From: Raillietiella orientalis
Lineage: Eukaryota
Reading direction: 5' to 3'
NCBI GenBank assembly: GCA_036172245.1
Contig: JAYWIR010000001.1
Span: forward strand, 1,736,001-1,800,000
Length of the DNA stretch: 64,000 nucleotides
Under the pieces are notes generated by a model. It searched no databases, was not told the origin of the DNA, and was given only the letters and a program-made list of their open reading frames with translations. Below, one piece after another: positions 3,001 through 64,000 of this stretch. Each line of letters begins with the position of its first letter. The first letter of the stretch is position 1. The position numbers and the translations under genes were made by a program.

Positions 3001-3790
3001 AGCCGACCACTCTGCAGAGCACCGGGGAGCTCGCCTCCGTCGTCCTGGTGACGCGCGATCGGTGGGAGGGAAGGGTCGCAGGGTGGCGACGTGTCTCTCG
3101 GCTCGGTTGTTCGGCTGCAAGAGCCTCGATTCCTTGGGCCCGCCGCAAGGCGACCCCACGCGCGTGGCTGCTGGAGCAGCAGCGCCTCGAGGCGGAAACC
3201 AAGGCGCCACCCGAGATGACGTGCGTTCGCCAGCGCACGGACAGCGCAGCAAGGGACGTGCGGTCCGAGACCGCCGCTCCCTGAGCGCTACAGCGACAGC
3301 TTGCGGCCGCCTCCCGCGTCGACCAAGGACGACTCGAGCAGGTCGGATGGATTCGGGGAAAAGCGGACGGACCTTTCCGGCCCTCCTCTGAGAAGAGTCC
3401 CGAAGGGAAGCCCTGAGAAACGCGTGCCGCTAAGGCAGCAGCAGAGCGTGGCTCGTCTCCGCGCGCGCACCAACGTCCAGCCCCTCGCCCGTTGGCCTTC
3501 CGTAACGGAAGGAGCGAGGCTGCCGGCCGAAGGTGTGCATCGGCAATCCGAAGGAGCCTGCTCCATGGTGCCGGCGCCGGGTTGCGAACGGAACTCCGGG
3601 ACGGGCCGGGGAGCTGTGCTGCGGAAGGCGAGCGTCACGTCGGATGTCTTGGGAACGGGGCGGGAGGACAGGACGTTCCGGGAATGGGTCCGTAGTCGGG
3701 GAAAGCGCGCCGGGACCCGCCAGGCGTGCGGTCAGCGGTCGCGGCCGGGCGGGTTCGTAGCGGAAGATGCGTGCGGGGGAGGGGAGGCTG
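1..3790 (+). repeat. Inverted duplication IR1, left arm (open-ended at window edge)
   Basis: Position x mirrors 15976-x. ORF translations in all frames match those of 12186-15975 on the opposite strand. Only one substitution seen (3776 vs 12200). Homology ends at about 3790/12186. Confidence 0.97.
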
Positions 3791-3849
3791 TGATGTAGGA
3801 ACTCAGCTGATCGTTTTCTCTGTGTCTTCAACTGCTGAGGAAGGCGATT

Positions 3850-7800: not shown

Positions 7801-8917
7801 CTTGTTTTGACTGCTGTTCCAAGCCAAGAGTGTGCTCATGCCGATCACACAGGTTGGTGGCGCCTTTGTGTTCTTTGTATACACCGCTGGAAGTTCGGAA
7901 TCATTGCGGATGGAGGAAGAAGCTGCAGCATCTTTGGTGCACGCGACGATGTGGAATCATCTGCTCTGGCCGCAGTGCCGCAATTTGTACCTGGATGGGT
8001 AGCCATTCCTGGAAATAGTTCCGGGATCAGCGTTGGAGGTACAATTTAAACATCGTAGCTTTTCGATTACATTGGTGCTGCATTCGTTTCCTTCTTGAAT
8101 GACCGAATCGGGGATTGAATGGGTACATAATTGATAGTTATAAGAAAAGGGTGGAGCAAGCTTACATCTCACAGGAAGTTTGGTCTCCCTCTTGGCTCTT
8201 TGGAATTCGGTACAAACAAACGTCTTGCTTTCCCCCGAAAGCGTGTTTTCCTGATAGAAACTGTTGTTCCTGTCTTCTTCGAAGTTCCCTTTGAGGAAAT
8301 GTTTCCAACTTTTAATGAAGCACGATGACACGTGACGTTAACTTGCAAATAATTGAATCCGTATTGCAGGGGTCATTCCAATAACTTTGTGCATTCCGAA
8401 TGAGGGGATACGACAGACAGAAATTCATGTGACTGGAGCTCCTGATGACTTCACGTTGCTTGCTGCTCGCAGATAGAACACAGAGCATGAGGAGCGGCAC
8501 GTGTGCCACCTGGTTCTGCAGGAGTTGAGCAGCCTGTCGAAATCTCCTTTTCGCAAGACAAGCGCGGACCCTCCTGATCCCCTTTAGAGACTTCCGAGGG
8601 CTTTCCAGAACTCAGCAAACTGCGCGTTTCTGGTGCTCATTTAGAAATGCCTGCCGACGGCACTGGGGACGACTCTTCGACCTCTCATTCCATCACATAC
8701 AACCAGCTAGCAGTTAGCCCTCTCCTCAGATGCTTCTGGGTGTCTACCCAAGCAACCTATTTCTACTCTAAAGGTGTCATCAATGGACCAAAGGAAGTAC
8801 CATTAGGTTCGCAGTGGCAGATCGGACCTCCATTCAGAAATCACAGCTTATTTTCCATAGTTCCAATTTTTCCTCAAGAAATGCTCGGAGTCCACTCTGT
8901 CATAGCTCAGCTCTGGT

Positions 8918-9669
8918 GTCCGCGTTGGCGGCGGTGTGGCTGCGTTCTCCACTCGTGGCAGGAAACGTTGCGGATTCGAATCCTTCACGGGGAAGGATCG
9001 ACGCCGAGAAATGACGGGTGCGTCGTGGGTTTCCAGTTCCTCTGGCAGGATGCCTCTGGTTGGCCTCGGTTGGCTTCGGGTACGGCACCGGTGGAACCGA
9101 ATGCCTCCGTTGACCGGCCTGGACTGGAAGTTGACCTTCCGGATGATTCAAGGACGCCCTCGGGGTTCCACTCCTGTTGGGGGAAGGGAGCCCCTCTCCC
9201 CCTCCGGCAAGGATCCTCCATCGCCTACCATGAAGCTGGTTGATACCCGCTTCGGAGGTCGCCTCTCCAGGAGCGCTCTGTTCCCTCCGGCGAGCACCCT
9301 TCACAGACATTGGGAAGCGTCCCTTTAGGGTCCTCTTCAGAGGAGGAAAGCAGGAGCAGTTCCCTCCAGAGAAGATATTTCAGGAACGGATCATTTTCGG
9401 ATTTCCTTAGGAAAAGAAACGAAGAGCGGAACCCTCCGAAAAGAATGAGGAAAAGGTTCCCTCCAGAGACGACCAGGGCAAGGGTTCCCTCCCAAGCGTG
9501 AGAGAAACGGAATCCTTCTCCTGGAGCCCTTCCTGGATTCATAGGGTGGTCTCCTCCCTGGGTGCCCCCTATCTTGAAGAATACACGCACCCTCGGGTGG
9601 CGCGGAAGATGCCAAAGAGCTTCGTGACCACTTCCCCCTAAGGAGGTGAGAGGTTATTCAGCAACACTA
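8918..9669 (+). mobile_element. Long tRNA-headed SINE-like element, copy A (older, no poly(A) tail)
   Basis: Head GTCCGCG...GCGGATTCGAATCC (B-box-like). Flanked by direct repeat AGCTCTGGT(G) at 8909-8918 and 9670-9679. Body aligns with 43082-44187 and 30009-30680 (e.g. GCACCCTCGGGTGGCG, AAGAGCTTCGTGA, TTCCTGGATTCA). Confidence 0.8.
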
Positions 9670-10899
9670 AGCTCTGGTGCTAGACTCAACATCTGCGCTC
9701 CCTGGTGCCTTTACTACCAAAGCACTGGTAGTGGAGACGTCAAGCACTAAGGCACCTGACACCACTGTTATAGGTTTCCGATTGACGGAGTCTTCTTTCT
9801 GCCTTCCTTGGTCACGTGCTAGTCTGCCACCTTGAGACACCCATGCTAGTCCTGAGGGCAGAGGGGAAAGAGTCCGGAAGGATTCGTAGAGCGGGGTGCG
9901 ATGTGTTGTTCATATGGGTGTTCGTCCGCACTTGCGGAATTGGGGGGCAACCAGGGAGGTGGTGAGTTTCTCGACACGACCGCTTCTGCGAGGCTGAAGA
10001 AGGAGATGGCAGCTGCTCTCTGCCGCCCGCCCACTGAGGCACCGGAATGACTGAAAGTGAACTTTGGAGTCTCCCCACCCTTCCTCCCGTCACCGGGGCA
10101 TGGGAGAGAGGTTTCCCGATTGAGCTTCCGGTGTGACGGGACTCGGTTCTCACTGGGAATTCTCGTTCCCGGAGATGGGCTGCTCCTTCCCCAGAGCTGG
10201 CGGGAACAGATGTGGAACTGCGTCGCGAGGCGGGGACAGGACTCCCCGTTTGCTTACAGGCGTCCAGCGGGAGTTTCGTGGGAACCTGCGAAGCACTAAA
10301 ATCCGGAGAGCACTTCTTCTCCAGGGGAGTTCCACATAAACAACGGTTCAGGAGGAGAAAGCAGCGCCACCAGGAAAGGTCGATGTGTTTACATGAAAAA
10401 CCTGGAAGTTGATTCGGGGGACTGCAATTACTGAAACGTGAGCATTATTGAGCACAAGAACGCTCTCTTCTTTGCTTGCATTGATTGGGACACCGCGTGG
10501 TCGGGAATGATCACTACGGGAACTTTATTGCCCCGAGTGTTTACTGTCTCTGCAAGGGCCTCTGAGGCGAATGCAGCGCAGGAAAGCCCAACGGCTGCTC
10601 CGGGCGGCTCCGGAAAGATCACGTGATCACCACTCCGCAGCGGCGTGCGACCGGGGAGCATGCAAGCAGCGGTGCATGGCCTCACAAGCTTCGGCAAAAC
10701 TCTGGGTCGAGAGCTGTGGGGGGCTCTTCAGTCTGCTCTGCTGCGGAGGGCGCGATCCACGCATCCCGAATCTTCCTTGTTTCCTGGGCTCGCCGGACCC
10801 CGGTGAGCAGACGGGAAGAGAGTCTCGGACGCTCCGGCGCGCGCGCGTCTTTGTGAAGTGAAGGCTGTGCACCCTTGCTGCGGAAAGCCTCTGACTAAG

Positions 10900-12185
10900 G
10901 GGACAGCAGTCGGATCACTCTCCCTCAAGAGGCGGTAAAGATGGAGGATACTTGCTGTCCAGCATGGGGACACCGCAGGTCACCGTAGCCCAATTCGCAC
11001 CTTTTTTCTTGTCTCCATTTTCGATGAGCGGTTGAACGCGAATGCGAAGAGTGGAGGTGGCAGATGCGGCCATCTTCCAGTTCCATAAGCTCCTTCTGTG
11101 CCTGGAAATAATAATCATAATAAGCTGCTTCCGGTTGTTGCAACACCGTGCGTGGCGAAAAGAGTCATCGCAAATCTGACATGGCGACACATGCCGGATC
11201 CTGTTGGAGCTCAGTGGGCGGATTTCTTCCCCCTGTGCGTGAGAATTGCAAGCGGGTAGACGAGCAGATCGAAAGCATCCGAACCCTTCCTGCATCCTCC
11301 GTCTCTCCTTTCGTTCCGGATTCCTCGAGACCCATGGAAGACTTCCGCGATGCCAAAGTTGAACAGGTCGAGGACAGGTTTGCAAGAGCTCCGGAAGAAG
11401 TTAACTCCCGCGAGAAAGTCCGTTGCCGAGCGAGCGATAGCAACGTCCAACAAATCAGCACAATGATGAGCGACCTCGTTTGGCCCGCAAGAAAGCTTTT
11501 CTGGGTGAGCATCAGGAGAAAGAAAGGTGAAAGGCGAGTGACACCCCGAACGAGAGAAGAAAGGCACAACGCGCATCGCGACGTGCTCTCGAAGGAAAGC
11601 AGTCTGACCAGTGGTGAGGCCACCTTCCCCTGGTGCGCTTTTGATCTTTTTAGTGCTCCTCCAGTTTCGCGCCGTCCACCTCATTTGCTTGTGGACCCAC
11701 ATGGATCATTAGCGCATCGATACAGAAGCACCAGATTGAACGAAATGCCATCGCTGAGAAAGGAAGTCGTTTAGAAAGGACGCGCAGACAGCAGCGGTGA
11801 TACTGAATGGAAAGAGGAGAGCTCCGGGAAACCAAGAATCCACGATGCAGGCGCGCTACTCATTAACTGCAAGACCGCCTTGGCAGATGCACTCGATGCA
11901 AACGATGCAGCCGAGACACGATGGAACGAATTTGCTGACGCAGGGCCGTTTATACAACGGAAGACATCTCAGCTTGTTGGACTGGAGTGCATTCTGCTGA
12001 ATTACAAGCTTTTCTATTCGTCTGAAGCTTTAATCCAACAACTCCCACAAAGATCTTCTCTCGCTCCCTTTGCGACCAACCCTGAAGCTACCATGTCTTG
12101 AGGAGTGCGCACTTGGTACCAAAAAAGGATCGCTACAGCCGGCAAACCTTACGCACACCCTTCCGGTCCTACAGAGTTCACTTCG
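10900..12185 (-). mobile_element. Degenerate L1/Tx1-like ORF2, 3' half
   Basis: Minus-strand peptides in L1 order across frameshifts: KSAPGEGGL (post-RT P...GGL motif), VSPCQICDDSFRH (Cys knuckle), IIISRHRRSLWNWK (terminal ..IW motif). Confidence 0.45.
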
Positions 12186-15100
12186 CAGCCTCCCCTCCCT
12201 CGCACGCATCTTCCGCTACGAACCCGCCCGGCCGCGACCGCTGACCGCACGCCTGGCGGGTCCCGGCGCGCTTTCCCCGACTACGGACCCATTCCCGGAA
12301 CGTCCTGTCCTCCCGCCCCGTTCCCAAGACATCCGACGTGACGCTCGCCTTCCGCAGCACAGCTCCCCGGCCCGTCCCGGAGTTCCGTTCGCAACCCGGC
12401 GCCGGCACCATGGAGCAGGCTCCTTCGGATTGCCGATGCACACCTTCGGCCGGCAGCCTCGCTCCTTCCGTTACGGAAGGCCAACGGGCGAGGGGCTGGA
12501 CGTTGGTGCGCGCGCGGAGACGAGCCACGCTCTGCTGCTGCCTTAGCGGCACGCGTTTCTCAGGGCTTCCCTTCGGGACTCTTCTCAGAGGAGGGCCGGA
12601 AAGGTCCGTCCGCTTTTCCCCGAATCCATCCGACCTGCTCGAGTCGTCCTTGGTCGACGCGGGAGGCGGCCGCAAGCTGTCGCTGTAGCGCTCAGGGAGC
12701 GGCGGTCTCGGACCGCACGTCCCTTGCTGCGCTGTCCGTGCGCTGGCGAACGCACGTCATCTCGGGTGGCGCCTTGGTTTCCGCCTCGAGGCGCTGCTGC
12801 TCCAGCAGCCACGCGCGTGGGGTCGCCTTGCGGCGGGCCCAAGGAATCGAGGCTCTTGCAGCCGAACAACCGAGCCGAGAGACACGTCGCCACCCTGCGA
12901 CCCTTCCCTCCCACCGATCGCGCGTCACCAGGACGACGGAGGCGAGCTCCCCGGTGCTCTGCAGAGTGGTCGGCTGCGCCTTCTTCCGGAAAGAAGTGGC
13001 GCGTAGCTGGCTCTCGGGAACTGGCCTGCAACCGACTTTCGACTCGCTTCCGCCCGTGTCTTTCCCGCTTGCGGCATTCCCAACCCTGCGCAGAGGTCCA
13101 GACTCTCCGATCGCTGCCTCCTTTCTTCCACCTCCGTCCCGCTTGTCTTTCTCGTTGTTGGTGGCCTTGTTGGATGGATGACTGCTGCAGGAAAGAGGTG
13201 ATGCTGGAGTGGTGCTCCTCTTCTGCTCCGTGCTCCCGCGCATGGGTGCGGGAGCGCGCCCGTTTCCCCTTCCTCCGGAGACGGTCCGTCGAACGCAAAG
13301 TCGTCGTCCCGGGAACCGATTCCTTGCGTACCGCCTCCCTTCGCGTCCCGCTACTGCAGCTCCACGAGTCACCGCAGCGCTTTCCCTGCTGGTCCCGCGC
13401 GCCCTGGGACGCTGCTCGGCAACCCGCTTGGCGGCGCCGTCGTCCCCTTTTCCCGTCCCGGCACCTGCCTGTCGCTCGCTCGCTCCTCCGCGGACGTCGG
13501 TCGGCGCCTCCGCCTTCCGGTGCTGGCGTCCGCTTCTCTCGCGCCTCGGTGCTCGGTCCCCCTTGCTCTCGCTGGCGGGCTGCTGGTGGTGGCCCGAGGT
13601 CTCGGACCACCTTCCTCTTTTCGGCGCCGTGCTGGCCGCCTTCTGCGGGCATTTGCCTTGCGCCCCCCAACACTTTCGAGCTACGGGTCGCAGCCCGAGC
13701 CCGGTGCTGCACGGAGGGACAAGGCGCTGCTGAAGTACGGCAGAGTTTCCCGACCGCCGCCGCCACCTGTGCTTGGTTTCGCGCGTCAGTCCTCTTTGCG
13801 CAAAATGCGGCGTCGGTGCGGCTGCGCGGTGCTCAAGAAGAGATGGCGATCGCCGCTGTCCCTGGCGTTCCCGTTCCCGCCTCTCCGCGGCGTCTTCGAC
13901 TTTCGAACGCCGAGGTGGCGGTCACCGAGAGGCACGTGGCGGTAGGTGGCGCCGTTCGTCTGCAGCGTCGGAGGCATCCGGAGCGCCCCGACTGCGCGTG
14001 GGTGGTTGCTGCAGTTTTGCCGCGATCCTTGCGGCGAGACGCGCGCGGATCGAGATGGCTCCCCTGAGGCGCGACGGCCTCGTAGGAATCCGCGGTTGCC
14101 GTGGAGACGGGTCGTTGACTCGCTCGTTTGCCGGTCGTCGTCGCAGCGCGCAGGAGCACCGTCCGCCGCCATTCTCCATCCCGGAGGCCGCGCAGGAGCG
14201 GAGCCGCGGCATCCGGGTGCTCGGTGGGAGGGCGGAGACTCCGTCGACTGGCGCCGAGAGCTCCGGTGGCGCAGCCCGCGGCGTTTCCTTCCGCGTTTCT
14301 CGTTGCGGAATTCGTGCGAGAGGGAAGTGCATGGCTGCGAGGAGCTCCGCGTGGCGACCGCCAGCAGCAGCAAGCCTCGCAGGCGGGTGGGCGTCTCCGG
14401 TACACCGGTTCCAATGATGCGGTGGGTGAAGAGGGGTGCCAGCCGTACGGGGATGGGTCGCGCATGCGCGGTTCCCCTGCTGGCCGCGAGGGTGTCGGTG
14501 AATGCGGGCGACGCTCCTCACCGGCAGGTCTCTCTGGCCCGGAAGCGCACCCAGGAAGGGATGGGCGCCGATGGCGCTGGACGAGCCGGAGGCGGAGGTG
14601 CGCTCCCCGCCAAGGTGGAAACTTCCGGCGCGACCTCGGGTCTCCACCGTCAGGGTACGCCGCGCTTCCCTTGCCTTGTCCACCGAGAGAGGCGAACTGA
14701 AAAGGCGCGTCTCGGGCGTGCGGCTCGCGTCACCCTTGCGGATGCCGCGGTCGCAGGCGGTCGGCGTCGGCGATGTGCCATCCTTGCGAGAAGAGCGTGG
14801 AGCGACCCGGAAGCGTATGGTGGTGGTCGCCGGGGACCGTTTCCGAGAGCCGTGGGGTGGGAGCGAAAGAGCATTTGCCTCCTGGGATGCGCGACGGTTT
14901 CGCGGCGCTCGTTCGCGCACGCTTCCGTGCCGGCCGTTCCTCAGCTGCGGCTCCGCGTCGCCGGTGGCGCGGGGCAACGGGCGGCCGCTCGTAGTGCCCG
15001 GAACCCGCCCGCTGCGGGCGAGGCGGCCCTCGATTCGCAGGCGACGCCGGCGAAACCCGCGCGGGACAGGTCACGTGACAGGAAGCGCGACGGCACGCCG

Positions 15101-15975
15101 TGAAAGAGGGAGGTCGCGGCTCAAGGAGCGCCCGTCTGGTCGCAAACGGCAGGCGCAACGGGGGAGAGGAGGGGTGGGGCTTCCTTGTCCGTGGACGGTC
15201 TTACGGCGACTGTGGCGGCGCTGCCTCACTATGGACGCCCGTTTGACGGTGGAGCTGTCCTACGGGCGCCAGCACAAGAGGCGGCGCTTTGGTGGACGTT
15301 GGTCCTGGGATGATCCGACGGGGGCGCTAGCTCTCCTGCGTCCCCGTCCGCTGAGTGGGCGGGCATCCTTGCTAATAGGCCGCGGATACGCATTTTCCCG
15401 GATGCACTTGGCGGACGCGGCGGCGTCCCTTTTCAGGGAGGATCGGAGCGGGAGAAGGCGCCCTGGGAAGGTCGCAGTCGTGGCAACCGCGCAGCGGACG
15501 CGGGAAGTGCGTTTTCGGCGCACGCGAAGCAATGCGACGCAGCGCGTTCCCGCCCGTCCGCGAGCCACGACGCGGAGAGAAGCGAAAGAAGGGAAAAGTC
15601 ATAGCACCGTTGCAGGGATGCTCGGAAGAAGACCTGCTGGCTACCGGGACCGGCCGCGCTCCTCGCCCCAACAGCAAGTGCCGCGGCGAAGACATACGCG
15701 CGACCCTGCAGCGGCCACTGCGTCGGAGGCAGCGCCAGCATTCGGCGCCGCGGGAAACCTGCGGGAGCACCGCATCGTCGCCTGGGACGGCTGCTTGAAC
15801 TTCCCGGGCCGTCCTTCGGCACAGGAGAAACTGAGGGGACGAGAAGGGGGACGAAATCCGTCCGGGTGAGGTCGCCTTCGACCCCGTGGCGAGCCCGCAG
15901 CCCTCCGAGCGGTCGTCGGCTCGCTGCCACGCAACGGCAGCGCGGCAGTCTTGGAAACGCTCCGCCACCTCCACG
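12186..15975 (-). repeat. Inverted duplication IR1, right arm (partner of 1-3790)
   Basis: Reverse complement of 1-3790. GC-rich sequence continues without a break to about 22300, so the arm may be longer. Confidence 0.97.
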
Positions 15976-29218: not shown

Positions 29219-30008
29219 CGAAGGATCGACGCTCGCAACCCATGTGACTCGACAACGCCTAGGGCTCGACACGCGTCTTCTCTTCTCGTTGCTTCCAGGC
29301 AGCCTCCTCGCTTTGCAGCAAACCGAGGGCGACGCCTTCGCACACCGAGACCCTCTCTGGTGCAGGCTACTCGTCCGTCCTAGCAACCGGGTATCGACGA
29401 CAACGCGTGCGTGCGTGGGGGGGGCGACTCGTGGAGAGAAGAACGAAGCACCGCGTGGACTAGGCGCGCGCGCGCGGCGCCTCGGACTCCCATGGGAAGA
29501 GTGCGCGAACCTGATTGCGACCGAGGTTCGAAGTCAGACGAGTGGCGCCAGCCAAGTGTTGGCGGACGGCCGCAGGGACCGATCGGCTCCAGCAGGTTCG
29601 ACCTACCTCGAATTCGAAGACGCGTGCCTCTTCCGCCCTGTAGGAGCGTTCCGCGCAGCTTCCGAGAAATCTTCCCCCATCTCCGGGGGGGGGGGGGAGG
29701 AGCGAAGCCCGGCTCGCTCGTCCTCGCCCGCTCCTCGGTTCCCGTCGAAAAAAGGCTCGCAAGCGGAGCGCAGCGCTCCCGGGTCCACCAGCTTCCGACT
29801 CGTGCCGATACCCCAGTCACCTGCACTCACCTCTTCACGACGACCCGGTTGGCGCCACTCTCCAGGCCAACCCAACTTTGCCAGTGTATCCGCCATTTCT
29901 CGCTTGCTCGCTGCTACCATGGTAGCAGCGTCCCGGGCAACGGCCGCGATTCCTCGAGCGCGGATGGTCCTTTGGGGTTTTTCTGTTTTCTCTCCCTTCC
30001 TTCCTGTG

Positions 30009-30680
30009 TTTTTTTTTCTTTTTCTTTTTTTTTTCCGCATTGCTAATTGCTGAAGAACCGTTCGCGCGCTTAGGGAGGACTCACGAAGCTCTTCAGCACC
30101 GTCCACGCCACCCGAGGGTGCGCGTAACTCTTCAGGTTACAGGGGCAACGCCACGCCACAGGAATCCAGGAACGGTTCCTGTGAATCCAGGAAGGCTTCG
30201 GTGGAAGAAATCCGTTCTGTTTATGCTTGAGAGCTCCCTTTATGCGAGCCGGACCCTCGCCCTGGTCGTCTCGCAAGGAAACCCCGAAGGGAAGCTGTTC
30301 CTCATTGTGTGCGGAGGGCTTCCCGGACGAAGCCGCTCCTCGCTTCTTCTCCGAAAGCAACCCGGAAAGGATTCGGTCCTTGAATTTCTTCTCTGGAGGG
30401 AACCCGCGAGGGAACTGCTCCTTGTTCCCTCCTCTGGGGAGAACCCCAAAGGGAGCAGCGCGCTTTTTACACCCTGGAGAGGCGACCCCCGAAGCGGGTA
30501 GCAACCAGCTTCACGGTGCGCGGTAGGTCTCTCCGCGAGGCGGAGGACGGAAGGCAGCGGAGGGGAACCCCGAAAAAAGGCGCCCTTGATTCCTCCGGAA
30601 GGAACCCGGAAAGTCAAATTCCAGTCCCGGGAGGGGAAGGGGGGGGGGGCATCCGTCTTCCACCAGTGCCACCAGTTCCA
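30009..30680 (-). mobile_element. Long SINE-like element, copy C (5'-truncated, A-rich tail); mirrored at about 42755-43081 plus 44199-44543
   Basis: Aligns with the bodies of copies A and B and ends in an A-rich run (T-run 30009-30034 on plus). No tRNA head found. Confidence 0.7.
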
Positions 30681-30951
30681 CCGAGAGGAGAATGGAGGGA
30701 AGCGGAGCGGTCGCGTGCCTTTCCGGGAAGAAGGTGCGAGACGGAAGTGCGCCGGTTCGTCGTCGGAGGAGGACGGCGAGCGGAGATCGTGGACGAAGGC
30801 AGGGAGGAAGGATCCATCCACCGTCTCTTCTGGGAGGAGAGCCTCCTCCGCGCCGGGTCTCCTCAGAGGAATGAGATGACGCAGTGACCGCTGCCCATCG
30901 CCCAATCATCCGTGACGACCGAGTGCGGTCGCGGTGGTTTCGACGCGGGAT

Positions 30952-30972
30952 GTCGTCGTCGTCGTCGTCGTC
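30952..30972. repeat. (GTC)7 microsatellite, mirrored as (GAC)n at about 42462-42482
   Basis: Read directly from the sequence. Confidence 0.9.
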
Positions 30973-33900
30973 TTGCCGCCGCAGAGGGGGAAGGGCGCGC
31001 GCGGTCCAAGTCGAATCGCGGGAGTGCGAACGCCAAGATGAGGATGAGGGAGCAGCGCATCACCGTCCGTGCGGGTGGATGCAGGTTGGGCAGGCGACGT
31101 CGTCGACGCTGTGCGGAAATCGGGTGGCGGGACTGCGTCGGTGCAGTCGTGCAGAGAGCCGATTCCCGTGAGCCGTCGGCTGGCTGGGAGCATTGTGGAA
31201 GCCTCGACCGCCTCCTCGGTCCACGGAGCGAGTCGCCGGGCGCTGCTCGGAAGGCGGCAGGTCGTAGCAGCGTCGGACAGCACCGACCGCGCAACCGTTC
31301 GGCACGCTTGCGAGGGCGCTCTTGCGAGGCTGCTGGCACGCGCCGGTACGAACGCAGCCCCCCGGAGCCGGCACCCAAGATCACCCCCTCGCCATCGGAT
31401 GGCGCCCTGCCATGGCCGGCGGGCAGGGGCAGAGAGCACCATCGTTGGCATTCGTCTGTACGTAGCTGTGCACGTGGGCTGCCACTCGTAGACCGCCGAT
31501 CGCGCCATTGTTGGCAAACACTCGCGCCCGCATGTGTGCAATCGCCCGTTGCTAGGTGCCCGCGCGACACGGCGGAAGCGCAACGTGCCCACCGGTGCTC
31601 CGGAACCAAGGCGACGGCAGGCCTTGGCCGTCCGGTGCGTGCTCTCCGGGGGGCACATTTCTTGACGGGAAGACGCGCGAGTCGTGGACCGAAGGCCTTC
31701 TCCGGCTCGCGGCCGCGCCACGGGCCGTCCAGCGCGTGCCCCATCCCTGCAGGCGAGGGAGGAGCAGCACCCCAAGGCGATGCTCGCACCCACCCGGAAT
31801 CCCTGGAACACGTGCACCTGGCGAACACGCCTTCGGCAGCGCCGGCTGTGCTTTGATGCGCGAGTGTCTGGCGGTCGGCGGTCGCTTTGCGCACCGATGC
31901 TGACGGTGGCTGCGTGCGTGCTGATGGAGGTCGGAGAGCGCGCGTGCAGCACGCGCTCCCGCAGGCTGCTCGCTGGGACCTCGACTCCGGGATCGGCGGT
32001 TCTGTGGGACCGGGGCCTGCTGGGGAGCTGCCTTGAACGATCCGCTACTGCGGCAACTTGTTTGCAGCTCCGAGCGACGTGGCTCCGGGACCGCTCGGGA
32101 TGCACTCGTGGTGAGACAAGAAACATGCAATCCGTTCTCGCTGACTTCGATGAGTATTTGCGTCGCGTCCGACAGCCGCTGCACCTGGGAGGACGGATTG
32201 GCTGGATGCACGCAGCACTTTCCTTGCATCTGTGTGGGATGCAGGTCGGAGAGCAGGTTTTGGAGTTTTTTTTTTTTTTTGTCCTTTTTTCCTTCATCGG
32301 GGACTTTCTGTTTTTCTGGTTGCGCGGTTCAGAGTAGCGGCGAAGGTGCAGCGCCTCCAGATATTTGAGAGCACGCCTATTGGTTTGCTCCTGCTCTCCC
32401 TCTTCCGGCACCCGTTGGTGCCCTTTCCTGGTTCCACCCTCGAGTCAGGGTATCCGGCTCGAGAACAGCCTTCGACGCAACCTGAGGAGGAGTTCCGTTC
32501 TCCAGTCCTCCAGTCCTGTCGCGCTATCCCCTCCCTTTCGCCTTCCCCTTGTCCGCAGCACCCTTCTCAGATGGCACGGGAAAAGGCGAGGTTTTCCCGG
32601 ACACAAGGAAAGGCCAAGAGAGAAAGGTCAACAGAGGTCACTGGAAAGGACGAGGGAGAGGGAAGAGGGGAGGAGATAAGTTCCCCCAAAGCATCAAAAG
32701 AACATTTCCGAAAGGGTACCCATTCTCTTCGGATTTCCCAAGAGCACCGGGTCTTGCATGAGGTGGAAGATGAGTAAACGACCTTGGAGACGATGGGGTT
32801 AGCGAGGGAAAGAGAGGAAGAAAGCTTTGCTCCCGGAATCCTCGCCAGTGCTTGCTACTAGGAGGGACGTCTTCCGCGGCATGGAAGGAAGTACTGAGTC
32901 GGACCCACTTCCTTCAGTTTCCCCTCTTTCTGCGAGAAGTGTCGGTGCGGTCAGATGCGGTCGGTGTCCACCTGAGGATAGTGCGACGAGCAGATGCTGT
33001 CATATCCGGAGGGGAAAGGAGATATCAGTACATTGCCAATCGTGCGATCACCATGGTTGACATTCGTCTATATACAGTTCCGTACGCGAGCTATTAAACA
33101 ATCACCAATCGCGACGCGCGGCATTGTTGCTGCAAACGGAAGCGCGCGCGTCACGGACGCATGCGCCACTCGAGTGTCGTCAGTCGCCATCATGGGAGCC
33201 AGCACCCCTTGGCCTGGAGAGTGGAAAAGGTAGAAGCGCGCACCAGGTGTGTCGTCATCCTCCCACGCGCGGCACGCAAAGTCCCAGGCGAGAAGGTATG
33301 CGGCCGAAGACGGGCAAAGACGGGGGGTCCTCGTACGGTCCGAGTGAAACTACGCCAGCGCGCGTCCGCGTCGCGTGCCGTGCGCAGAGCTCGAGGAAGG
33401 GTGCGAGCTCCCCGAAGAGGCAGCAGAAGGAAAATGGAAGGAGGCAGAGTAGAGAGATTGCGCAGCGTTTCACGGCTGCACGCTTGCGCGAGATCCGCTC
33501 GAAGGCCGAGCTCCCAAAGACGGACGCGCACCCTGCAACCGCGGCGTTCGGCGGCGCGTACCGCTGCGGCAGCAGCCGGAAGAACCCACTGTGGACACGA
33601 ACAGGAGGGAGAGAACCAAGCCTCTGGTGTGGGCAGGACAGCACGGGACAACGGCGCCACAGCAACCAGAGCGTGCCCACTCCTCGCTCACTCCCGACGC
33701 CCGATGCGGGAGTCCTGCCTTTCCCACGTCCCGTGGAATGCATCCCGCGCCCCGACGTCTACGTCGCACCTCTGGCCCGCCCCAGAGCTGCAAGCGCTCT
33801 GCTCCTGCAGAGGTGAGCCCGCGCCAGCGCGGGCGTCCGGTCGCACCTGAAAGAGAGCGGATGAGACTACCGGGAGTTGCCTGGCGATCCTGAGAGATGA

Positions 33901-34422: not shown

Positions 34423-36177
34423 ATGGACGAGCAACCTCCGTACTTGGAGCAGAGCTTCGAAGAGGAACCGGGCTCTGCCTTGCAACTGCTGCTGCCGCCG
34501 CCACCGGCGCCGTGGGAAGGCGAGAGCAGCGCTGACTGCTGGACAGAAGCCACCGAGAGGAACGAATGGCCGCTCCCCCTCCAGGATCTCGCCGCCGGTT
34601 GGTATGGAACCACTCTGTCGGGAGGGAAGAAGGGAAGAGGAGGAATTCCGTCCCCCACCCCCACCTTCGCCCCCCTTTCTCTCCGTGGTCCAGCTGGCTG
34701 CCGTTTTCTCATTCCGCCTTCGCGGCGGAAGCAGTGACCTCTACCATCATTCGCCCGCGCGCTGGGTGCGAGATCTCCCTGCTATTCGGAAGTGGATCTG
34801 CTTCTTTCCTCAAGAGAGGATGGGGGCGACCGTCCCCTGACTCCCCCTCTCTTCGATCCCGACCCCCGCGATTTGCAGACTTGAATTTCCAGGCGTGAGG
34901 GGAATGGAGAAGAAAGGATGAGCGAAAAATCAAGGAAAACAGGGGGATGGAGAGGTGTCCCTTCCTTCAGTCCTTTGCTCTGGAACGAGGAGGAAATCTC
35001 TCTGGACATGACGGTTTCTATCGCTGCAATTTCCTCTTCCCTGATGCGCCTTCTTCTTCGGTCTCTTCTCACACCTCCGCTGATGCCCTGTCTCGTAACT
35101 CCGCGCCTCCTTTCCCCCTCCCACGTGCCACTGATTCCTGTATCTTCTCTAGGATGCTGTTGCTGCGCAGGATGCGTGCGGGAGCTCTTCGGTTTTTCCG
35201 TCTCCGAAGGGCCTTCGGAGGAGGCTTTCGGGGGCACGGGGCTCTCCGAAGGAGGAGCGGATGACGATGATGATGATGGTTGCGAAGAGGAGGAGGAGGA
35301 AGATGCCTTTGCCGGCGCCGACCCGGACCCCTTCGCCGTCCCGGAGTCAGTGGTACCCCTTCTTCCTCACGAAAGTATGGGACCGTTGGACTTCCCGGAC
35401 CTGCAGAGCTTCGACTGCTGCCTGGGGGAGCCGCTGGACTTCAATGTGGCGCGGCTGCTGGACGAGGACGCCTGCGGCCTCGACCTCGAGTCGCTCTCTT
35501 CTGCGGATGCCCTGGACCTCATCGTGGGCGCAGGAATTTCCCGCTCCCCTCAACGGGAGCTGCTGGAGGTGGAACTCCCTCGTGCTGGGGTTGCTGGCGG
35601 GGCTGGAGGAGGGCCGGAGAGGCCCTCCAGGACGGCCCTTCCCCGCCCGCGTCCCCTGCTGCAAGGCGGGACCGGAAGAGGGCGAGGAAGGGCGGCAGCT
35701 CTATGGGGAAGGGGGCTCGGGAGCGGCCCCCGTCCCCCGGAGAGGGAGGACAAGTGCTACGCATGCCCCTACCCGGGGTGCGGGAAGACCTACGCCAAGT
35801 CCTCCCACTTGCGAGCCCATTACCGCAGACACACCGGGGAGAAACCCTTCGCCTGCTCCTGGCCCGGGTGCTGCTGGAAGTTCTCCCGCTCGGACGAGCT
35901 GTCCCGCCACTGCCGCTCGCACTCCGGGGTCAAGCCTTACGAGTGCCCCGAGTGCCGCAAGCGGTTCTCCCGCAGTGACCACCTGACCAAGCACAACAAA
36001 GTTCATAGGAAGGACAGGCTGGGTCCGGGTAGACCCGCTTCCCGGTCACCGTGCGACGGCGGCGGCTGCAAGGGCAGGACGGTGGCAGAGGCAGCCTTGC
36101 CCCCCGCGGCTTGCTTCCAGGACGGCTACTGCCGTCCGCGGCTGCTGCTCCTAAGCAACGAGGAAGCTCCGACGTGA
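34423..36177 (+). CDS. KLF15: Kruppel-like factor 15-like C2H2 zinc-finger transcription factor (2 exons: 34423-34597, 35153-36177; about 399 aa)
   Basis: Three C2H2 fingers with [48 protein letters not shown]...RSDHLTKH, matching KLF15-subfamily residues. A phase-1 GT..AG intron (34598-35152) joins CCATGG at 34423 in frame. Exon 1 is inferred. Confidence 0.85.
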
Positions 36178-41156: not shown

Positions 41157-44100
41157 ACAAAAAAAAAACTCCAAAACCTGCTCTCCGACCTGCATCCCAC
41201 ACAGATGCAAGGAAAGTGCTGCGTGCATCCAGCCAATCCGTCCTCCCAGGTGCAGCGGCTGTCGGACGCGACGCAAATACTCATCGAAGTCAGCGAGAAC
41301 GGATTGCATGTTTCTTGTCTCACCACGAGTGCATCCCGAGCGGTCCCGGAGCCACGTCGCTCGGAGCTGCAAACAAGTTGCCGCAGTAGCGGATCGTTCA
41401 AGGCAGCTCCCCAGCAGGCCCCGGTCCCACAGAACCGCCGATCCCGGAGTCGAGGTCCCAGCGAGCAGCCTGCGGGAGCGCGTGCTGCACGCGCGCTCTC
41501 CGACCTCCATCAGCACGCACGCAGCCACCGTCAGCATCGGTGCGCAAAGCGACCGCCGACCGCCAGACACTCGCGCATCAAAGCACAGCCGGCGCTGCCG
41601 AAGGCGTGTTCGCCAGGTGCACGTGTTCCAGGGATTCCGGGTGGGTGCGAGCATCGCCTTGGGGTGCTGCTCCTCCCTCGCCTGCAGGGATGGGGCACGC
41701 GCTGGACGGCCCGTGGCGCGGCCGCGAGCCGGAGAAGGCCTTCGGTCCACGACTCGCGCGTCTTCCCGTCAAGAAATGTGCCCCCCGGAGAGCACGCACC
41801 GGACGGCCAAGGCCTGCCGTCGCCTTGGTTCCGGAGCACCGGTGGGCACGTTGCGCTTCCGCCGTGTCGCGCGGGCACCTAGCAACGGGCGATTGCACAC
41901 ATGCGGGCGCGAGTGTTTGCCAACAATGGCGCGATCGGCGGTCTACGAGTGGCAGCCCACGTGCACAGCTACGTACAGACGAATGCCAACGATGGTGCTC
42001 TCTGCCCCTGCCCGCCGGCCATGGCAGGGCGCCATCCGATGGCGAGGGGGTGATCTTGGGTGCCGGCTCCGGGGGGCTGCGTTCGTACCGGCGCGTGCCA
42101 GCAGCCTCGCAAGAGCGCCCTCGCAAGCGTGCCGAACGGTTGCGCGGTCGGTGCTGTCCGACGCTGCTACGACCTGCCGCCTTCCGAGCAGCGCCCGGCG
42201 ACTCGCTCCGTGGACCGAGGAGGCGGTCGAGGCTTCCACAATGCTCCCAGCCAGCCGACGGCTCACGGGAATCGGCTCTCTGCACGACTGCACCGACGCA
42301 GTCCCGCCACCCGATTTCCGCACAGCGTCGACGACGTCGCCTGCCCAACCTGCATCCACCCGCACGGACGGTGATGCGCTGCTCCCTCATCCTCATCTTG
42401 GCGTTCGCACTCCCGCGATTCGACTTGGACCGCGCGCGCCCTTCCCCCTCTGCGGCGGCAAGACGACGACGACGACGACGACATCCCGCGTCGAAACCAC
42501 CGCGACCGCACTCGGTCGTCACGGATGATTGGGCGATGGGCAGCGGTCACTGCGTCATCTCATTCCTCTGAGGAGACCCGGCGCGGAGGAGGCTCTCCTC
42601 CCAGAAGAGACGGTGGATGGATCCTTCCTCCCTGCCTTCGTCCACGATCTCCGCTCGCCGTCCTCCTCCGACGACGAACCGGCGCACTTCCGTCTCGCAC
42701 CTTCTTCCCGGAAAGGCACGCGACCGCTCCGCTTCCCTCCATTCTCCTCTCGGTGGAACTGGTGGCACTGGTGGAAGACGGATGCCCCCCCCCCCTTCCC
42801 CCTCCCGGGACTGGAATTTGACTTTCCGGGTTCCTTCCGGAGGAATCAAGGGCGCCTTTTTTCGGGGTTCCCCTCCGCTGCCTTCCGTCCTCCGCCTCGC
42901 GGAGAGACCTACCGCGCACCGTGAAGCTGGTTGCTACCCGCTTCGGGGGTCGCCTCTCCAGGGTGTAAAAAGCGCGCTGCTCCCTTTGGGGTTCTCCCCA
43001 GAGGAGGGAACAAGGAGCAGTTCCCTCGCGGGTTCCCTCCAGAGAAGAAATTCAAGGACCGAATCCTTTCCGGGTTGCTTTTTTTTTTTTCTTTTTTTTT
43101 TTTAAGGCCAGTAGTGACCTCCACGAGGAGATCGTTACTATTGGCCTAGGATGATGGAAATCCTTGGGTCCTTCTTTTTTCTTCTGTCTTCGCTGTTTTT
43201 CTTTCAGTTTTTTTTTTTTTTAAGAGTTTTTTTTTTTTTTTGGTTTGCTAAGTACCTCAGAGCCGGTCGCGTGCCTCGCGGCGCACGTGGCTCTTTTTAA
43301 ACATTAACACACTGTTTGGTTCCCACGCCCCTCCGCCCGCGGCAACCCGCAGGGGGGCGTGTAATTTCTTCAGTGTAATTCTTCAGGATAGGGGGCACCC
43401 CGGGATGGGGTCCGCCCTATGAATCCAGGAAGGGCTCGGAGTCCGTTCCTCTCACGCTCGGGGAGGGATCCCCCCCGGACGGGGGGGATCGCACCTCCCA
43501 CCCTGGTTGTCTCCGAAGGGGAAGCCCGAAGGGAATCTCCTTCCTCATTCTCTCCGGAGGGACACCCCCTGGGAGGGGGGTGGTCCTCTCCATTTTTTCT
43601 TCTCCGAAGAGAACCCGGAAAGGATCTGCTTGTAGGAATTTCTTCTCCAGAGGGAACCCGCAAGGGAACTGCCCCTTTATTCACTCCTCTGAAGACAACC
43701 CCGAAGGGACGCTTCCGAAACTCAGAAGGGGCGCTGCAGCTTCCCGCAGGGAATCGCTCTCGCTTGCTTCCTTGTGCACACTCTGTGAAGAGTCGACGAC
43801 TCGGAGGGGCCCCCCCGCAACAGGGGGAATCCGCTCCTTTGAACTGGAGAGGTGTCCGTGAGGGCTCCTGCTCCATCTTGAAACCGGAGGCGGTCCCTCT
43901 GGTGAGCGGGTCCGCTCTCCATTGCACGACCGGAGGGGGAACTCCCAACTCCTTGATTCCTGGGAGGACCCGAAGGTCGACTCCCATTGTTCCGGCCTTC
44001 ATCGGGAGCCTCCGGCTCATCCACCGCCGTGGCCACGCCCGAATGTCTCGGCCAACCAGCGCCATCTTGCAGGAGAAACTCGTAACCCAACGACGCAGTG

Positions 44101-45333
44101 GCGTCAGTTTCTGCCGAAGTATTCGAACCCGCGACGCATGGTACCACACGCGGAAGCCTTAACCACAAGGCCTCCGACGCGGGCTTTCGGGTTGCTTTCG
44201 GAGAAGAAGCGAGGAGCGGCTTCGTCCGGGAAGCCCTCCGCACACAATGAGGAACAGCTTCCCTTCGGGGTTTCCTTGCGAGACGACCAGGGCGAGGGTC
44301 CGGCTCGCATAAAGGGAGCTCTCAAGCATAAACAGAACGGATTTCTTCCACCGAAGCCTTCCTGGATTCACAGGAACCGTTCCTGGATTCCTGTGGCGTG
44401 GCGTTGCCCCTGTAACCTGAAGAGTTACGCGCACCCTCGGGTGGCGTGGACGGTGCTGAAGAGCTTCGTGAGTCCTCCCTAAGCGCGCGAACGGTTCTTC
44501 AGCAATTAGCAATGCGGAAAAAAAAAAGAAAAAGAAAAAAAAACACAGGAAGGAAGGGAGAGAAAACAGAAAAACCCCAAAGGACCATCCGCGCTCGAGG
44601 AATCGCGGCCGTTGCCCGGGACGCTGCTACCATGGTAGCAGCGAGCAAGCGAGAAATGGCGGATACACTGGCAAAGTTGGGTTGGCCTGGAGAGTGGCGC
44701 CAACCGGGTCGTCGTGAAGAGGTGAGTGCAGGTGACTGGGGTATCGGCACGAGTCGGAAGCTGGTGGACCCGGGAGCGCTGCGCTCCGCTTGCGAGCCTT
44801 TTTTCGACGGGAACCGAGGAGCGGGCGAGGACGAGCGAGCCGGGCTTCGCTCCTCCCCCCCCCCCCCGGAGATGGGGGAAGATTTCTCGGAAGCTGCGCG
44901 GAACGCTCCTACAGGGCGGAAGAGGCACGCGTCTTCGAATTCGAGGTAGGTCGAACCTGCTGGAGCCGATCGGTCCCTGCGGCCGTCCGCCAACACTTGG
45001 CTGGCGCCACTCGTCTGACTTCGAACCTCGGTCGCAATCAGGTTCGCGCACTCTTCCCATGGGAGTCCGAGGCGCCGCGCGCGCGCGCCTAGTCCACGCG
45101 GTGCTTCGTTCTTCTCTCCACGAGTCGCCCCCCCCACGCACGCACGCGTTGTCGTCGATACCCGGTTGCTAGGACGGACGAGTAGCCTGCACCAGAGAGG
45201 GTCTCGGTGTGCGAAGGCGTCGCCCTCGGTTTGCTGCAAAGCGAGGAGGCTGCCTGGAAGCAACGAGAAGAGAAGACGCGTGTCGAGCCCTAGGCGTTGT
45301 CGAGTCACATGGGTTGCGAGCGTCGATCCTTCG
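41157..45333 (-). repeat. Inverted duplication IR2, right arm (contains 1.1-kb SINE insertion)
   Basis: Reverse complement of 29219-32282 plus 1117 extra bp (1106-bp element and 11-bp TSD). GC content changes abruptly at both ends. Confidence 0.97.
43082..44187 (-). mobile_element. Full-length long tRNA-derived SINE-like retroposon, copy B (young)
   Basis: TSD CGGGTTGCTTT at 43071-43081 and 44188-44198, with the empty site visible in the other arm (about 30354-30364). Head GCCCGCGTCGGAGGCCTTGTGGTTAAGGC...GCGGGTTCGAATAC carries A/B-box-like motifs. A 3' stem-loop (43106-43146) precedes the poly(A) tail. Confidence 0.9.
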
Positions 45334-63300: not shown

Positions 63301-63404
63301 AATTGGTCAATGAATTGATATTTAATCAGGTGAATTCATATTGCTCCTGGCCTATTTCATGAAGCCCTTTTAAATGATTTTTTTCTGCTTTCCCATTTTG
63401 TTTT

Positions 63405-64000
63405 AAAAAAAGGCCAGTAGTGACCTCACCAGGAGATAGTTACTATTAGACCGTGTACTATTGGACCGGTCATGTGGCCACGGTCATTAAAATCCTCAGC
63501 CATGTCTCTATCTATCAATACCGCGCACGTCCATTACATTCTGTGAAATGATAAGGTTAGTAAAGGAGTGGTGAAAACATAAGAAATCTCAAGTGAAAGC
63601 GAACCTGATTTACAGTAGGTACCGTTTAATATAAAATAAGTAAGACAGTGACGGGTTATGTAATGTGAAATTGGGGGAATGATATGTTTTGGGAATCCTT
63701 TTAGGAATTGGTTCCCCCCCCCCAGCCCTATTGTTCTCTTTTTCGACCCGTGATCGCCATGTGTGTTTTCGTCTGCTCCATCCGTTCCTGGACGCCTGCA
63801 GCTTCGGTTCCTCCAGCGACACGGATGCGCTTCCTTTCTTTCGGCGTGCTTCCTATTCGTAGCTTTCTACGTGGGACTTCAGGAGGGAAAAGACCTACTG
63901 AACGGATTAATCATGGCGCTTCGTTCATCACGTTCATAGTGACCTGCCGCTGGCGCGTCCTGAGCTCTTGAGCTCGCTCGTGACCTGTCTTGCTGTAAGC
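63405..64000 (-). mobile_element. 3' end of a retroelement (probable LINE) carrying the same terminal stem-loop as SINE copy B
   Basis: 63411-63447 matches 43105-43142 at 35/38 nt and is followed on the minus strand by T7 and an A-rich tail. Upstream sequence is unrelated to the SINE body. Confidence 0.6.

Follow-up and report, generated by a model that had tools for sequence, protein, structure and literature searches.

A very recent 1.1-kb retroposon insertion with an exceptional hairpin density in its 64-kb window

The rodent B2 and ID elements are examples of tRNA-derived SINEs with A-rich tails. The box motifs of such heads have the consensus TRGCNNAGTGG (box A) and GGTTCGANNCC (box B), and a length of 1.1 kb lies far above that of the usual pol III product. 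SVA and its kin are modular, non-coding retroposons of about 1-2 kb that are moved in trans and can carry extra 3′ sequence; SVA itself is transcribed by pol II, carries a polyadenylation signal and lacks a head of the pol III type.

The SINEBase paper (PMC3531059) gives 75-662 nt as the span of 175 SINE families, places SINEs at '<700 bp' in its general definition, and describes them in its operational criterion (i) as short (<1 kb), interspersed, non-tandem repeats. For assignment to tRNA (or 5S or 7SL) the same paper asks for an identity of 60% or more across 60 nt or more, and it treats boxes A and B as an indication and not as proof (PMC3531059).

The locus analyzed here, a 64-kb stretch of DNA referred to as the window, contains an element (A) that measures 1,106 bp between its TSDs, with head plus body accounting for ~947 nt, and an older relative (B) of ~750 nt. 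Both A and B (751 bp) are longer than 700 bp and lie beyond the 75-662 nt span of SINEBase (PMC3531059), for A as the sequence-only reading had supposed when it called the length unusual. Its head plus body stays below 1 kb and the copies are dispersed, A exceeding 1 kb only with its composite tail, so that the general and the operational descriptions place it differently. Like tRNA-derived SINEs, whose head-body-tail architecture is defined there (PMC3531059), the A family is non-coding and has a head with box A and box B motifs, a body of obscure origin and an A-rich tail, as well as 10-11 bp TSDs, full-length and 5′-truncated copies, and subfamilies defined by indels. Unlike the SINEs of that description, it is longer, its head resembles a tRNA too faintly to be called by ARAGORN or Rfam, its body is exceptionally dense in short hairpins and its tail is composite.

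Resemblances to other systems are also partial. Element A shares with SVA and other composite LINE-dependent retroposons a length in the ~1-2 kb range, modularity, lack of coding capacity, a putative movement in trans and extra 3′ sequence, but it differs from SVA in its box A/B head and in having no AATAAA near its tails. As in chimeras of the U6-L1 type or in 3′ transduction, two unrelated RNA-derived parts are joined at an A run within a single TSD; a single copy cannot separate these two processes, and, unlike in those cases, the 3′ part recurs at 63395-63452 as a 41-nt hairpin module. With described structured RNAs (Rfam 15) it has in common a high GC content, many hairpins and some UUCG loops, but no Rfam family matches it at the gathering score or at E<=0.05. 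In kind, element A is ordinary, and two quantitative traits make it unusual: how long it is and how densely its hairpins are packed. A search confined to the literature found no paper describing it, and four element-derived 14-18-mers sought in full texts returned one chance primer match only. Coordinates are collected in Table 1.

Table 1. Features of element A, its target sites and its relatives in the 64-kb window
Feature	Position	Strand	Remarks
Element A, whole insert	43082-44187	minus = sense	1,106 bp; missing from the other palindrome arm
TSD, left copy	43071-43081		CGGGTTGCTTT (+ strand), 11 bp
TSD, right copy	44188-44198		11-mer identical to left copy
Unoccupied target site	30354-30364		other palindrome arm; CGGGTTGCTTT single, without insert
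Putative tRNA-related head of A	44113-44187	minus	box motifs; 5′ end aligns with that of B
GC-rich body	43242-44112	minus	61% GC; dense in short hairpins; all CUUCGG except the one at 44114
Internal A-rich junction	43208-43241	minus	A15, CTCTT, A14 (sense)
3′ unique segment	43104-43207	minus	ends in 41-nt hairpin module 43106-43146
Terminal A tail	43082-43103	minus	A12-G-A9 (sense)
Perfect 10-bp hairpin	43467-43490	minus	GATCCCCCCC-GTCC-GGGGGGGATC (sense), 4-nt loop
Hairpin	43560-43586	minus	GGACCACCCCC...GGGGGTGTCC
Most conserved A-B block	43355-43462	minus	identity 88% or higher per 25-column window; 63% over the whole
Older full-length relative B	8919-9669	+	751 bp; ~63% identical to A
TSD of B	8909-8918 and 9670-9679		10-bp AGCTCTGGTG
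Older 5′-truncated relative C	29939-30671	minus	found by nhmmer
C′, palindromic duplicate of C	42764-43081 plus 44185-44613	+	

A filled and an empty target site in a near-identical palindrome

The window contains an inverted duplication. Between its arms, at 29219-32275 and 45333-41159, identity is 99.91-99.95% once the 1,106 bp insert is set aside. Since the filled site in one arm is matched by an empty one in the other, element A is an insertion, and since the empty site lies in an arm that is 99.9% identical, its retroposition is recent. Element A is thus the product of a very recent retroposition of a mobile element, and the filled/empty pair within the palindrome provides a clean marker of this activity. 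The 11-bp TSD claimed by the sequence-only reading is present on both flanks and as a single copy at the empty site, and the claim of a retroposon is borne out by a defined 5′ end, box motifs, A tails, the TSD, the empty paralogous site and two older relatives. The insertion site itself lies inside C′, the palindromic duplicate of relative C.

Within the 64-kb window, nhmmer recovers B over 8919-9592 (E 3e-49) and C over 30580-29966 (E 3.7e-45), and a profile built from the three copies finds no additional ones there. At least three independent insertions of the family are therefore present within 64 kb, dispersed (8919, 29939 and 43082) and not in tandem. Elements A and B begin at the same nucleotide, each adjoining its own TSD; B has a TSD without an A tail, so priming in this family may not in every case depend on poly(A). 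The CpG observed/expected ratios of 0.82 (A), 0.76 (B) and 0.91 (C) carry no clear age signal. GAGCCCTTCCTGGATTCATAGGG falls within the stretch that A and B share most closely, and five segments of A of at least 8 nt, several of them self-complementary, are missing from both B and C. An exact-pattern scan of metagenome, prokaryote-genome and viral contigs with two conserved family motifs yielded no relatives: the first motif gave 0 matches in the metagenome set, the second gave 28 metagenome, 25 prokaryote and 1 viral match, and all 54 loci proved by blastn and nhmmer to be seed-only chance matches.

Taken together with the head and tail features described below, element A is probably a copy, made very recently, of an active SINE-type retroposon that is unusually long, non-coding and non-autonomous, putatively transcribed by pol III and moved by a LINE, and composite in its tail. 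If the family turns out to be abundant and transcribed by pol III, the length accepted for SINEs, as for pol III transcripts, would have to be raised, and the family would offer a natural case in which to ask why an active retroposon RNA keeps many hairpins.

Head, tails and proposed transcription of the element

A tRNA-like head with A and B boxes had been proposed for the element. The box motifs are present: the B-box-like GGTTCGAATAC at 44119-44129 agrees with the consensus at 10 of 11 positions and the A-box-like AGGCCTTGTGG at 44163-44173 at 9 of 11, with a distance of 44 nt between them. The tRNA itself is harder to recognize, because ARAGORN calls none in the head of A or B at default settings and the Rfam tRNA model matches neither at E<=10. 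A tRNA-like fold is drawn by ARAGORN only at the 70% threshold for the head of A, and a tRNA-like cloverleaf only at the 80% threshold for that of B; against one bacterial tRNA, the sole comparison sequence, the match is confined to the B-box region. The motifs are weakly suggestive of a tRNA ancestry for the head of A.

The absence of runs of four or more T from the sense strand, which the earlier reading had also pointed out, is real but only marginally unusual: dinucleotide shuffles contain 2.5 such runs on average, and 4.5% of 5000 are free of them. The nearest T5 downstream on the sense strand lies at 42967-42971, ~111 nt beyond the 3′ end of the element.

The sense strand ends, as claimed, in a poly(A) tail (A12-G-A9), which is preceded by a second, internal A-rich junction and a unique 3′ segment. 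The hairpin module closing this segment recurs standalone at 63395-63452, and the A-C mismatches of its sense strand become G-U pairs on the opposite strand in both module copies. The segment with its module has no counterpart in the tail of relative C, and the composite tail is lacking in both B and C, so that it is specific to the A lineage. AATAAA is missing from the 30 nt next to each A run, and neither it nor ATTAAA stands just upstream.

A composite or chimeric retrocopy derived from pol II, whether it resembled SVA or was formed from two RNAs by template switching, its tRNA-like boxes being incidental, would account for the two A runs split by unrelated sequence, for a length of 1.1 kb that is unusual for pol III, and for the failure of tRNA detectors on the head. 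We regard such an origin as very unlikely, since the 5′ ends of A and B coincide beside two different TSDs, as expected if transcription begins at a set position under an internal promoter, since polyadenylation signals are missing upstream of both A runs and T4+ runs from the sense strand, and since the extra tail belongs to the A lineage only.

Under the preferred reading of a SINE-type retroposon, RNA polymerase III would transcribe the element from an internal promoter formed by the box-A-like and box-B-like motifs of a degenerate tRNA-related head and, without an internal T4+ run, would not be stopped inside it. The A tail would serve a LINE-encoded endonuclease and reverse transcriptase in target-primed reverse transcription, with priming predicted at the + strand nick 5′-GCTTT^CGGAG-3′. 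The last ~150 nt, comprising A15-CTCTT-A14, the unique stretch, the hairpin module and the second A tail, may have been gained by read-through into the 3′ flank of the source or by template switching. No LINE and no reverse-transcriptase ORF was found among the 30 ORFs of the window compared with Pfam, a zinc-finger ORF being the sole match.

A coding role for element A was considered and ruled out. Its longest open frame, of 262 codons on the sense strand, has an equal in 3.6% of shuffles, and the antisense strand has one nearly as long, of 256 codons. The 262-aa product of the sense frame is without a Pfam match, and none of 704 candidates is a protein homologue. Consistent with the notion of non-autonomy in SINEBase, the element encodes neither reverse transcriptase nor endonuclease.

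Hairpin density and its possible origins

Element A contains 53 Watson-Crick hairpins (stem of at least 4 bp, loop of 3-6 nt), compared with about 20 +/- 5 in shuffles. In a scan of the window in 68 segments the excess reaches z = 8.6 for A, and the other 67 segments range from -1.9 to +2.6; within the family, A stands at z 6.1 to 8.6, and B and C at only 1.0 and 0.7, respectively. The hairpin density of element A is therefore real and exceptional for the window. The long hairpin singled out at 43467-43490 indeed forms a perfect 10-bp stem; it is flanked by an enclosing GGGAGG/CCTCCC, is missing in B and is replaced by other sequence in C. At the position of the hairpin at 43560-43586, C has a different one, GGCTTC-GTCCGG-GAAGCC, and B has none.

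The motif CUUCGG occurs six times on the sense strand (plus-strand CCGAAG at 43513, 43526, 43604, 43701, 43970 and 44114) and zero times on the antisense strand. The count, the strand and the expectation of fewer than 0.5 by chance all hold as the sequence-only reading gave them, with a dinucleotide-shuffle mean of 0.48 and none of 5000 shuffles reaching six, so that the counts stand above the controls that the reading had proposed. Its statement that several of the motifs close stems holds in part: three of the six close Watson-Crick stems of at least 3 bp, a fourth closes 2 bp, and the remaining two less than that. Two pairs of the motif are located in repeated 9-10-mers; internal tandem duplication was rejected as the origin of the six, the repeats found being only 9-13 nt long.

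These features had been read as the mark of a large, structurally conserved RNA. That the body is a selected multi-domain fold with variable hairpin arms, the element being a functional non-coding RNA or a descendant of one, is favored by the hairpin excess unique to it in the window and by the six-to-zero bias of CUUCGG toward the sense strand. It also draws on the whole-body MFE (z -5.4 sense versus -3.5 antisense), on the G-U pairs of the whole-body fold (37 sense versus 25 antisense), on the two alignment positions where lineages differ in their hairpin or have none, on a stem TTCTC/GAGAA in A aligned with TTTCC/GGAAA in B, and on an uneven conservation along the element, with a block of ~100 nt at 88% identity or more. 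We nevertheless consider this reading unlikely. Rfam 15 (4227 families) has no match in the whole 64-kb window at the gathering score or at E<=0.05, and its best matches in element A (E 0.38 to 8.8) are miRNA and sRNA models far under threshold and at chance level. An rRNA, ribozyme or IRES origin was rejected for want of an Rfam signal, and nothing points to the IRES-like or catalytic role that had been suggested.

Comparison of the copies and of the strands leads in the same direction. RNAalifold on the three copies returns a covariation term of +1.69, with double changes in 7 of 70 pairs, and double-sided changes that keep a pair number 11 of 213 for B (slid controls 7-11) and 9 of 154 for C (slid controls 9-13); compensatory changes are thus not above controls in a test to which three copies lend little power, and conserved structure is for this reason unproven rather than excluded. 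Hairpins allowing G-U pairs number 69 on the sense and 69 on the antisense strand, stable tetraloop classes on stems of at least 3 bp number 5 per strand, only half of the CUUCGG motifs close such stems, and fourteen 120-nt windows give ordinary local folding scores (z -2.3 to +1.5). In the terminal module, the pairing of A-C mismatches as G-U on the other strand also speaks against a selected fold of the sense-strand RNA. On balance, the hairpin tests lean toward no strand-specific RNA signal. A more specific version, a 'long structured SINE' lineage in which the source RNA of an active ~1-kb retroposon with a pol III-type head is selected for many short hairpins, their arms variable and their scaffold conserved, its fold serving stability or capture of the LINE machinery, appears quite improbable.

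The hairpins may instead have arisen at the DNA or cDNA level, through quasi-palindrome correction, snap-back or template switching, as a by-product without an RNA role, a possibility that we hold only tentatively. Such processes would act as the element is reverse-transcribed or replicated time and again. They would explain why perfect Watson-Crick stems make up the excess, in equal measure on the two strands, why the longest stems are perfectly palindromic and cap shorter ones found in B, and why the segments of A lacking in B and C are in several cases self-complementary; the strand bias of CUUCGG and the somewhat lower sense-strand MFE are not predicted by them. This explanation is compatible with the preferred reading of element A as a SINE-type retroposon and is not exclusive of it. 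For that retroposon, the dense short hairpins would belong to the RNA or DNA of the active source, and the near disappearance of the excess in old copies would be in line with neutral decay. The hairpins may be maintained by selection acting on the RNA, for stability or RNP formation, or may be products of mutations that create palindromes.

Elsewhere in the window, an ORF at 34885-36177 encodes a KLF15-like protein with three zinc fingers; its N-terminal part has no matches, and those that it does have are limited to the finger region and occur across many animals.

The insertion and its empty site

The 1,106-bp insertion under study (element A) is most probably a recently inserted copy of a SINE-type retroposon that is unusually long and dense in hairpins. 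Comparison of the window with itself placed it within a large inverted duplication, whose arms align as 29219-30367 against 45333-44185 (99.913% identity over 1,149 bp) and 30354-32275 against 43081-41159 (99.948% identity over 1,923 bp), with 14 bases of the first arm covered by both alignments; A lies in the second arm. As the 1,106 bp are absent from the first arm and the flanking 11-mer is single there, the window holds the filled and the empty version of one site. What the sequence-only reading observed, the 11-bp target duplication included, is confirmed, and its claim of a mobile element is strengthened by this empty site and by two older relatives. The insertion is thus younger than the two mismatches per ~3 kb between the arms; gene conversion between the arms could alternatively cause their likeness. 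As deduced from the junctions, the priming nick would lie at 5'-GCTTT^CGGAG-3' on the plus strand, a position that would fit target-primed reverse transcription of the LINE type.

Element A landed, in opposite orientation, in C', an older member of the same family. Its insertion point (43071-43081) corresponds by homology to the TTCTC-TTCG-GAGAA hairpin of A itself, which probably reflects chance in repeats nested within one another. The window contains two unrelated large inverted duplications, with arms 99.87-99.95% identical and a unit size of ~16 kb in either case; copy B lies within the spacer of the first, and the spacer of the second has a KLF-like ORF at its centre.

Coordinates of the features discussed (window positions)
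Feature	Position	Strand	Remarks
Element A	43082-44187	minus	flanked by 11-mer direct repeats
Target duplication of A, CGGGTTGCTTT	43071-43081 and 44188-44198		11-mer, bounds A on both sides
Empty site, ...CCTTTCCGGGTTGCTTTCGGAGAAG...	30354-30364		11-mer in single copy, other arm
Copy B	8919-9669	+	alignable from the first bases of the head to A position ~830
Target duplication of B, AGCTCTGGTG	8909-8918 and 9670-9679		10 bp
Copy C	30671-29939	minus	5'-truncated, A-rich tail
Copy C'	42764-43081 plus 44185-44613	+	mirror copy of C, interrupted by A
Hairpin module	43106-43146		41 nt; closes the ~100-nt segment, then final A tail
Motif CAAGATGG, as CAAGATGGCGC and CAAGATGGAGC	44064-44074, 43873-43883	minus	twice on the sense strand of A
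Inverted duplication 1	1-3804 / 12174-15975		spacer ~8.4 kb; first arm clipped by window edge
Inverted duplication 2	29219-32275 / 41159-45333		spacer ~8.9 kb
KLF15-like ORF	34885-36177	+	intron-less; three C-terminal C2H2 zinc fingers of KLF/SP type

Relatives, head and tail of the element

With A as query, nhmmer detected two older relatives in the window (copies B and C), and C has a mirror copy, C', in the opposite arm; a profile built from A, B and C recovered no further copies in the window, and no relatives were found in the public metagenome, prokaryote-genome and viral collections. Pairwise identity in the MAFFT alignment is 63% for A and B, 62% for A and C, and 73% for B and C. A and B, both full-length, share their 5' end, and either lies next to a target duplication of its own; this points to a fixed start of transcription, as expected from an internal promoter. 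B combines a clean target duplication with the lack of an A tail, so its lineage may have inserted without poly(A)-dependent priming.

The head of A comprises ~75 nt of the sense strand and contains the box A-like AGGCCTTGTGG (9 of 11 positions of the box A consensus) and, 44 nt downstream, the box B-like GGTTCGAATAC (10 of 11 positions of the box B consensus). A tRNA-like fold is returned by ARAGORN only at the 70% threshold for A and, as a cloverleaf starting at the first base of the element, only at the 80% threshold for B, while neither default ARAGORN nor the Rfam tRNA model (E<=10) detects a tRNA in either head. The box-like motifs of the head are present as noted earlier, and tRNA ancestry is therefore plausible but weak. 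The motif CAAGATGG, which may resemble a YY1-type site, also occurs in A.

The GC-rich body extends to sense position ~947 and is followed by the junction A15-CTCTT-A14, ~100 nt of unrelated sequence and a final tail of A12-G-A9, so that the poly(A) noted previously is present together with an internal A-rich junction; neither A run has an AATAAA or ATTAAA immediately upstream. A second copy of the 41-nt hairpin module (~88% identical) stands at 63395-63452 with no SINE body alongside, and the tail of C lacks the module. Both module copies have two mismatches that are A-C on the sense strand of A and would be G-U on the opposite strand. The simplest reading is that the module comes from outside the family, acquired via read-through or template switching, between which a single tail copy does not discriminate. 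Both copies end at GGCCTT; the one at 63395-63452 is followed by repeated ACTATTRGACC-like subunits and may represent the terminus of a different mobile element.

No run of four or more T occurs on the sense strand, as the sequence-only reading had stated, but 4.5% of the dinucleotide shuffles (mean 2.5 runs) likewise have none, and the absence agrees weakly with a pol III constraint. Beyond A, the first T5 of the sense strand lies at 42967-42971; pol III transcription of this copy would therefore yield an RNA of ~1.2 kb. A coding reading of A was rejected: its 262-codon sense frame has no Pfam match and no homologue among 704 candidates from a search of a large protein collection, and this length is reached in 3.6% of dinucleotide shuffles and nearly matched by a 256-codon frame on the antisense strand.

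Hairpin density and the origin of the palindromes

The six CUUCGG motifs on the sense strand (plus-strand CCGAAG at 43513, 43526, 43604, 43701, 43970 and 44114), with none antisense and fewer than 0.5 expected, are borne out by dinucleotide shuffles of the 941-nt body (mean 0.48, maximum 4, 0 of 5000 reaching six). With 29 CTTCGG and 32 CCGAAG on its plus strand, the window shows that the motif is not rare here; its clustering in A is unmatched elsewhere in the window. The six are partly non-independent, TCCCTTCGGG and CTTCGGAGA occurring twice each. Only three of them close Watson-Crick stems of at least 3 bp (4, 3 and 5 bp); one closes 2 bp and the other two fewer. Across the six sites the exact motif recurs in a relative only once, in C; variants in B and C include CTTTAG, CTTTGG, CTTAGG and TTCCGG.

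Perfect Watson-Crick hairpins, with stems of at least 4 bp and loops of 3-6 nt
Segment	Hairpins	Shuffles	z	Shuffles reaching
A body	53	~20 ± 5	6.1	0/500
A head-containing half (44184-43714)	25	9.5 ± 3.4	4.5	1/500
A 3' half (43713-43244)	27	11.5 ± 4.4	3.5	2/500
B	21	16.4 ± 4.8	1.0	99/500
C	19	15.6 ± 4.6	0.7	127/500

The hairpin density of A is real: in a scan of 68 segments of 940 nt, its segment reaches z 8.6 and the other 67 range from -1.9 to +2.6. As A is the sole outlier and the excess is nearly lost in B and C, the hairpins seem to characterise the active lineage, not the GC-rich DNA of this genome generally, and the small residual excess in B and C would be in line with neutral decay of a hairpin-rich ancestor.

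That the body is a large, structurally conserved RNA, as the sequence-only reading suggested, is unsupported rather than refuted. In favour of a selected fold, the sense strand folds more stably as a whole (-438.7 kcal/mol, z -5.4, versus -416.8, z -3.5, for the antisense strand), with 37 G-U pairs versus 25, CUUCGG is confined to it, and in two places of the alignment the hairpin differs or is missing between lineages; however, fourteen local windows of 120 nt give ordinary values (z -2.3 to +1.5), G-U-allowing hairpins number 69 versus 69 per strand for stems of at least 5 bp and 33 versus 27 for at least 6 bp, and the 36 tetraloop hairpins with stems of at least 3 bp include five UNCG/GNRA loops on each strand. 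An Rfam search of the whole window gave no match at gathering scores and none at E<=0.05. One 5-bp stem, read off the alignment, has two compensating changes between A and B, but in tests of little power, with three sequences of which two are dead copies, such changes are not in excess. For the best-aligned 380 columns, RNAalifold returns a covariation term of +1.69, with double changes in 7 of 70 pairs; when the 213 minimum-free-energy pairs of A are projected onto B, 68 are broken and 145 can still pair, 102 of these without change, 32 with one side altered and 11 with both. Two-sided changes do not rise above slid controls, either in B (11 versus 7-11) or in C (9 of 154 versus 9-13). Palindromes of DNA- or cDNA-level origin fit the strand symmetry equally well. 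A has five segments of at least 8 nt absent from B and C, several of them self-complementary.

Known SINEs and the surrounding window

SINEBase (PMC3531059) describes SINEs as non-autonomous retroposons that are transcribed by pol III and short (<700 bp, operationally <1 kb); for tRNA relationship, a stretch of at least 60 nt must match a tRNA with an identity of at least 60%. Boxes A and B are taken there as only an indication, and 175 families span 75-662 nt (mean 253). By these definitions, A exceeds the size criterion or is borderline. In its mode of working, A resembles the tRNA-related SINEs that have an A tail, and its two unusual traits, length and hairpin density, are quantitative. 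Literature searches found no published description of its family.

The only recognisable gene in the window is the KLF15-like ORF, whose fingers are 60-77% identical to the KLF15 fingers of many animals and for whose N-terminal 200 residues no relative could be detected. Window composition is a sharp mosaic of GC-rich and AT-rich blocks: those at 62-70% GC have a CpG o/e of 0.93-1.15, and those at 22.5-28 kb and 46-60 kb have 32-38% GC, a CpG o/e of ~0.6 and a TpG+CpA excess of 1.2-1.3.
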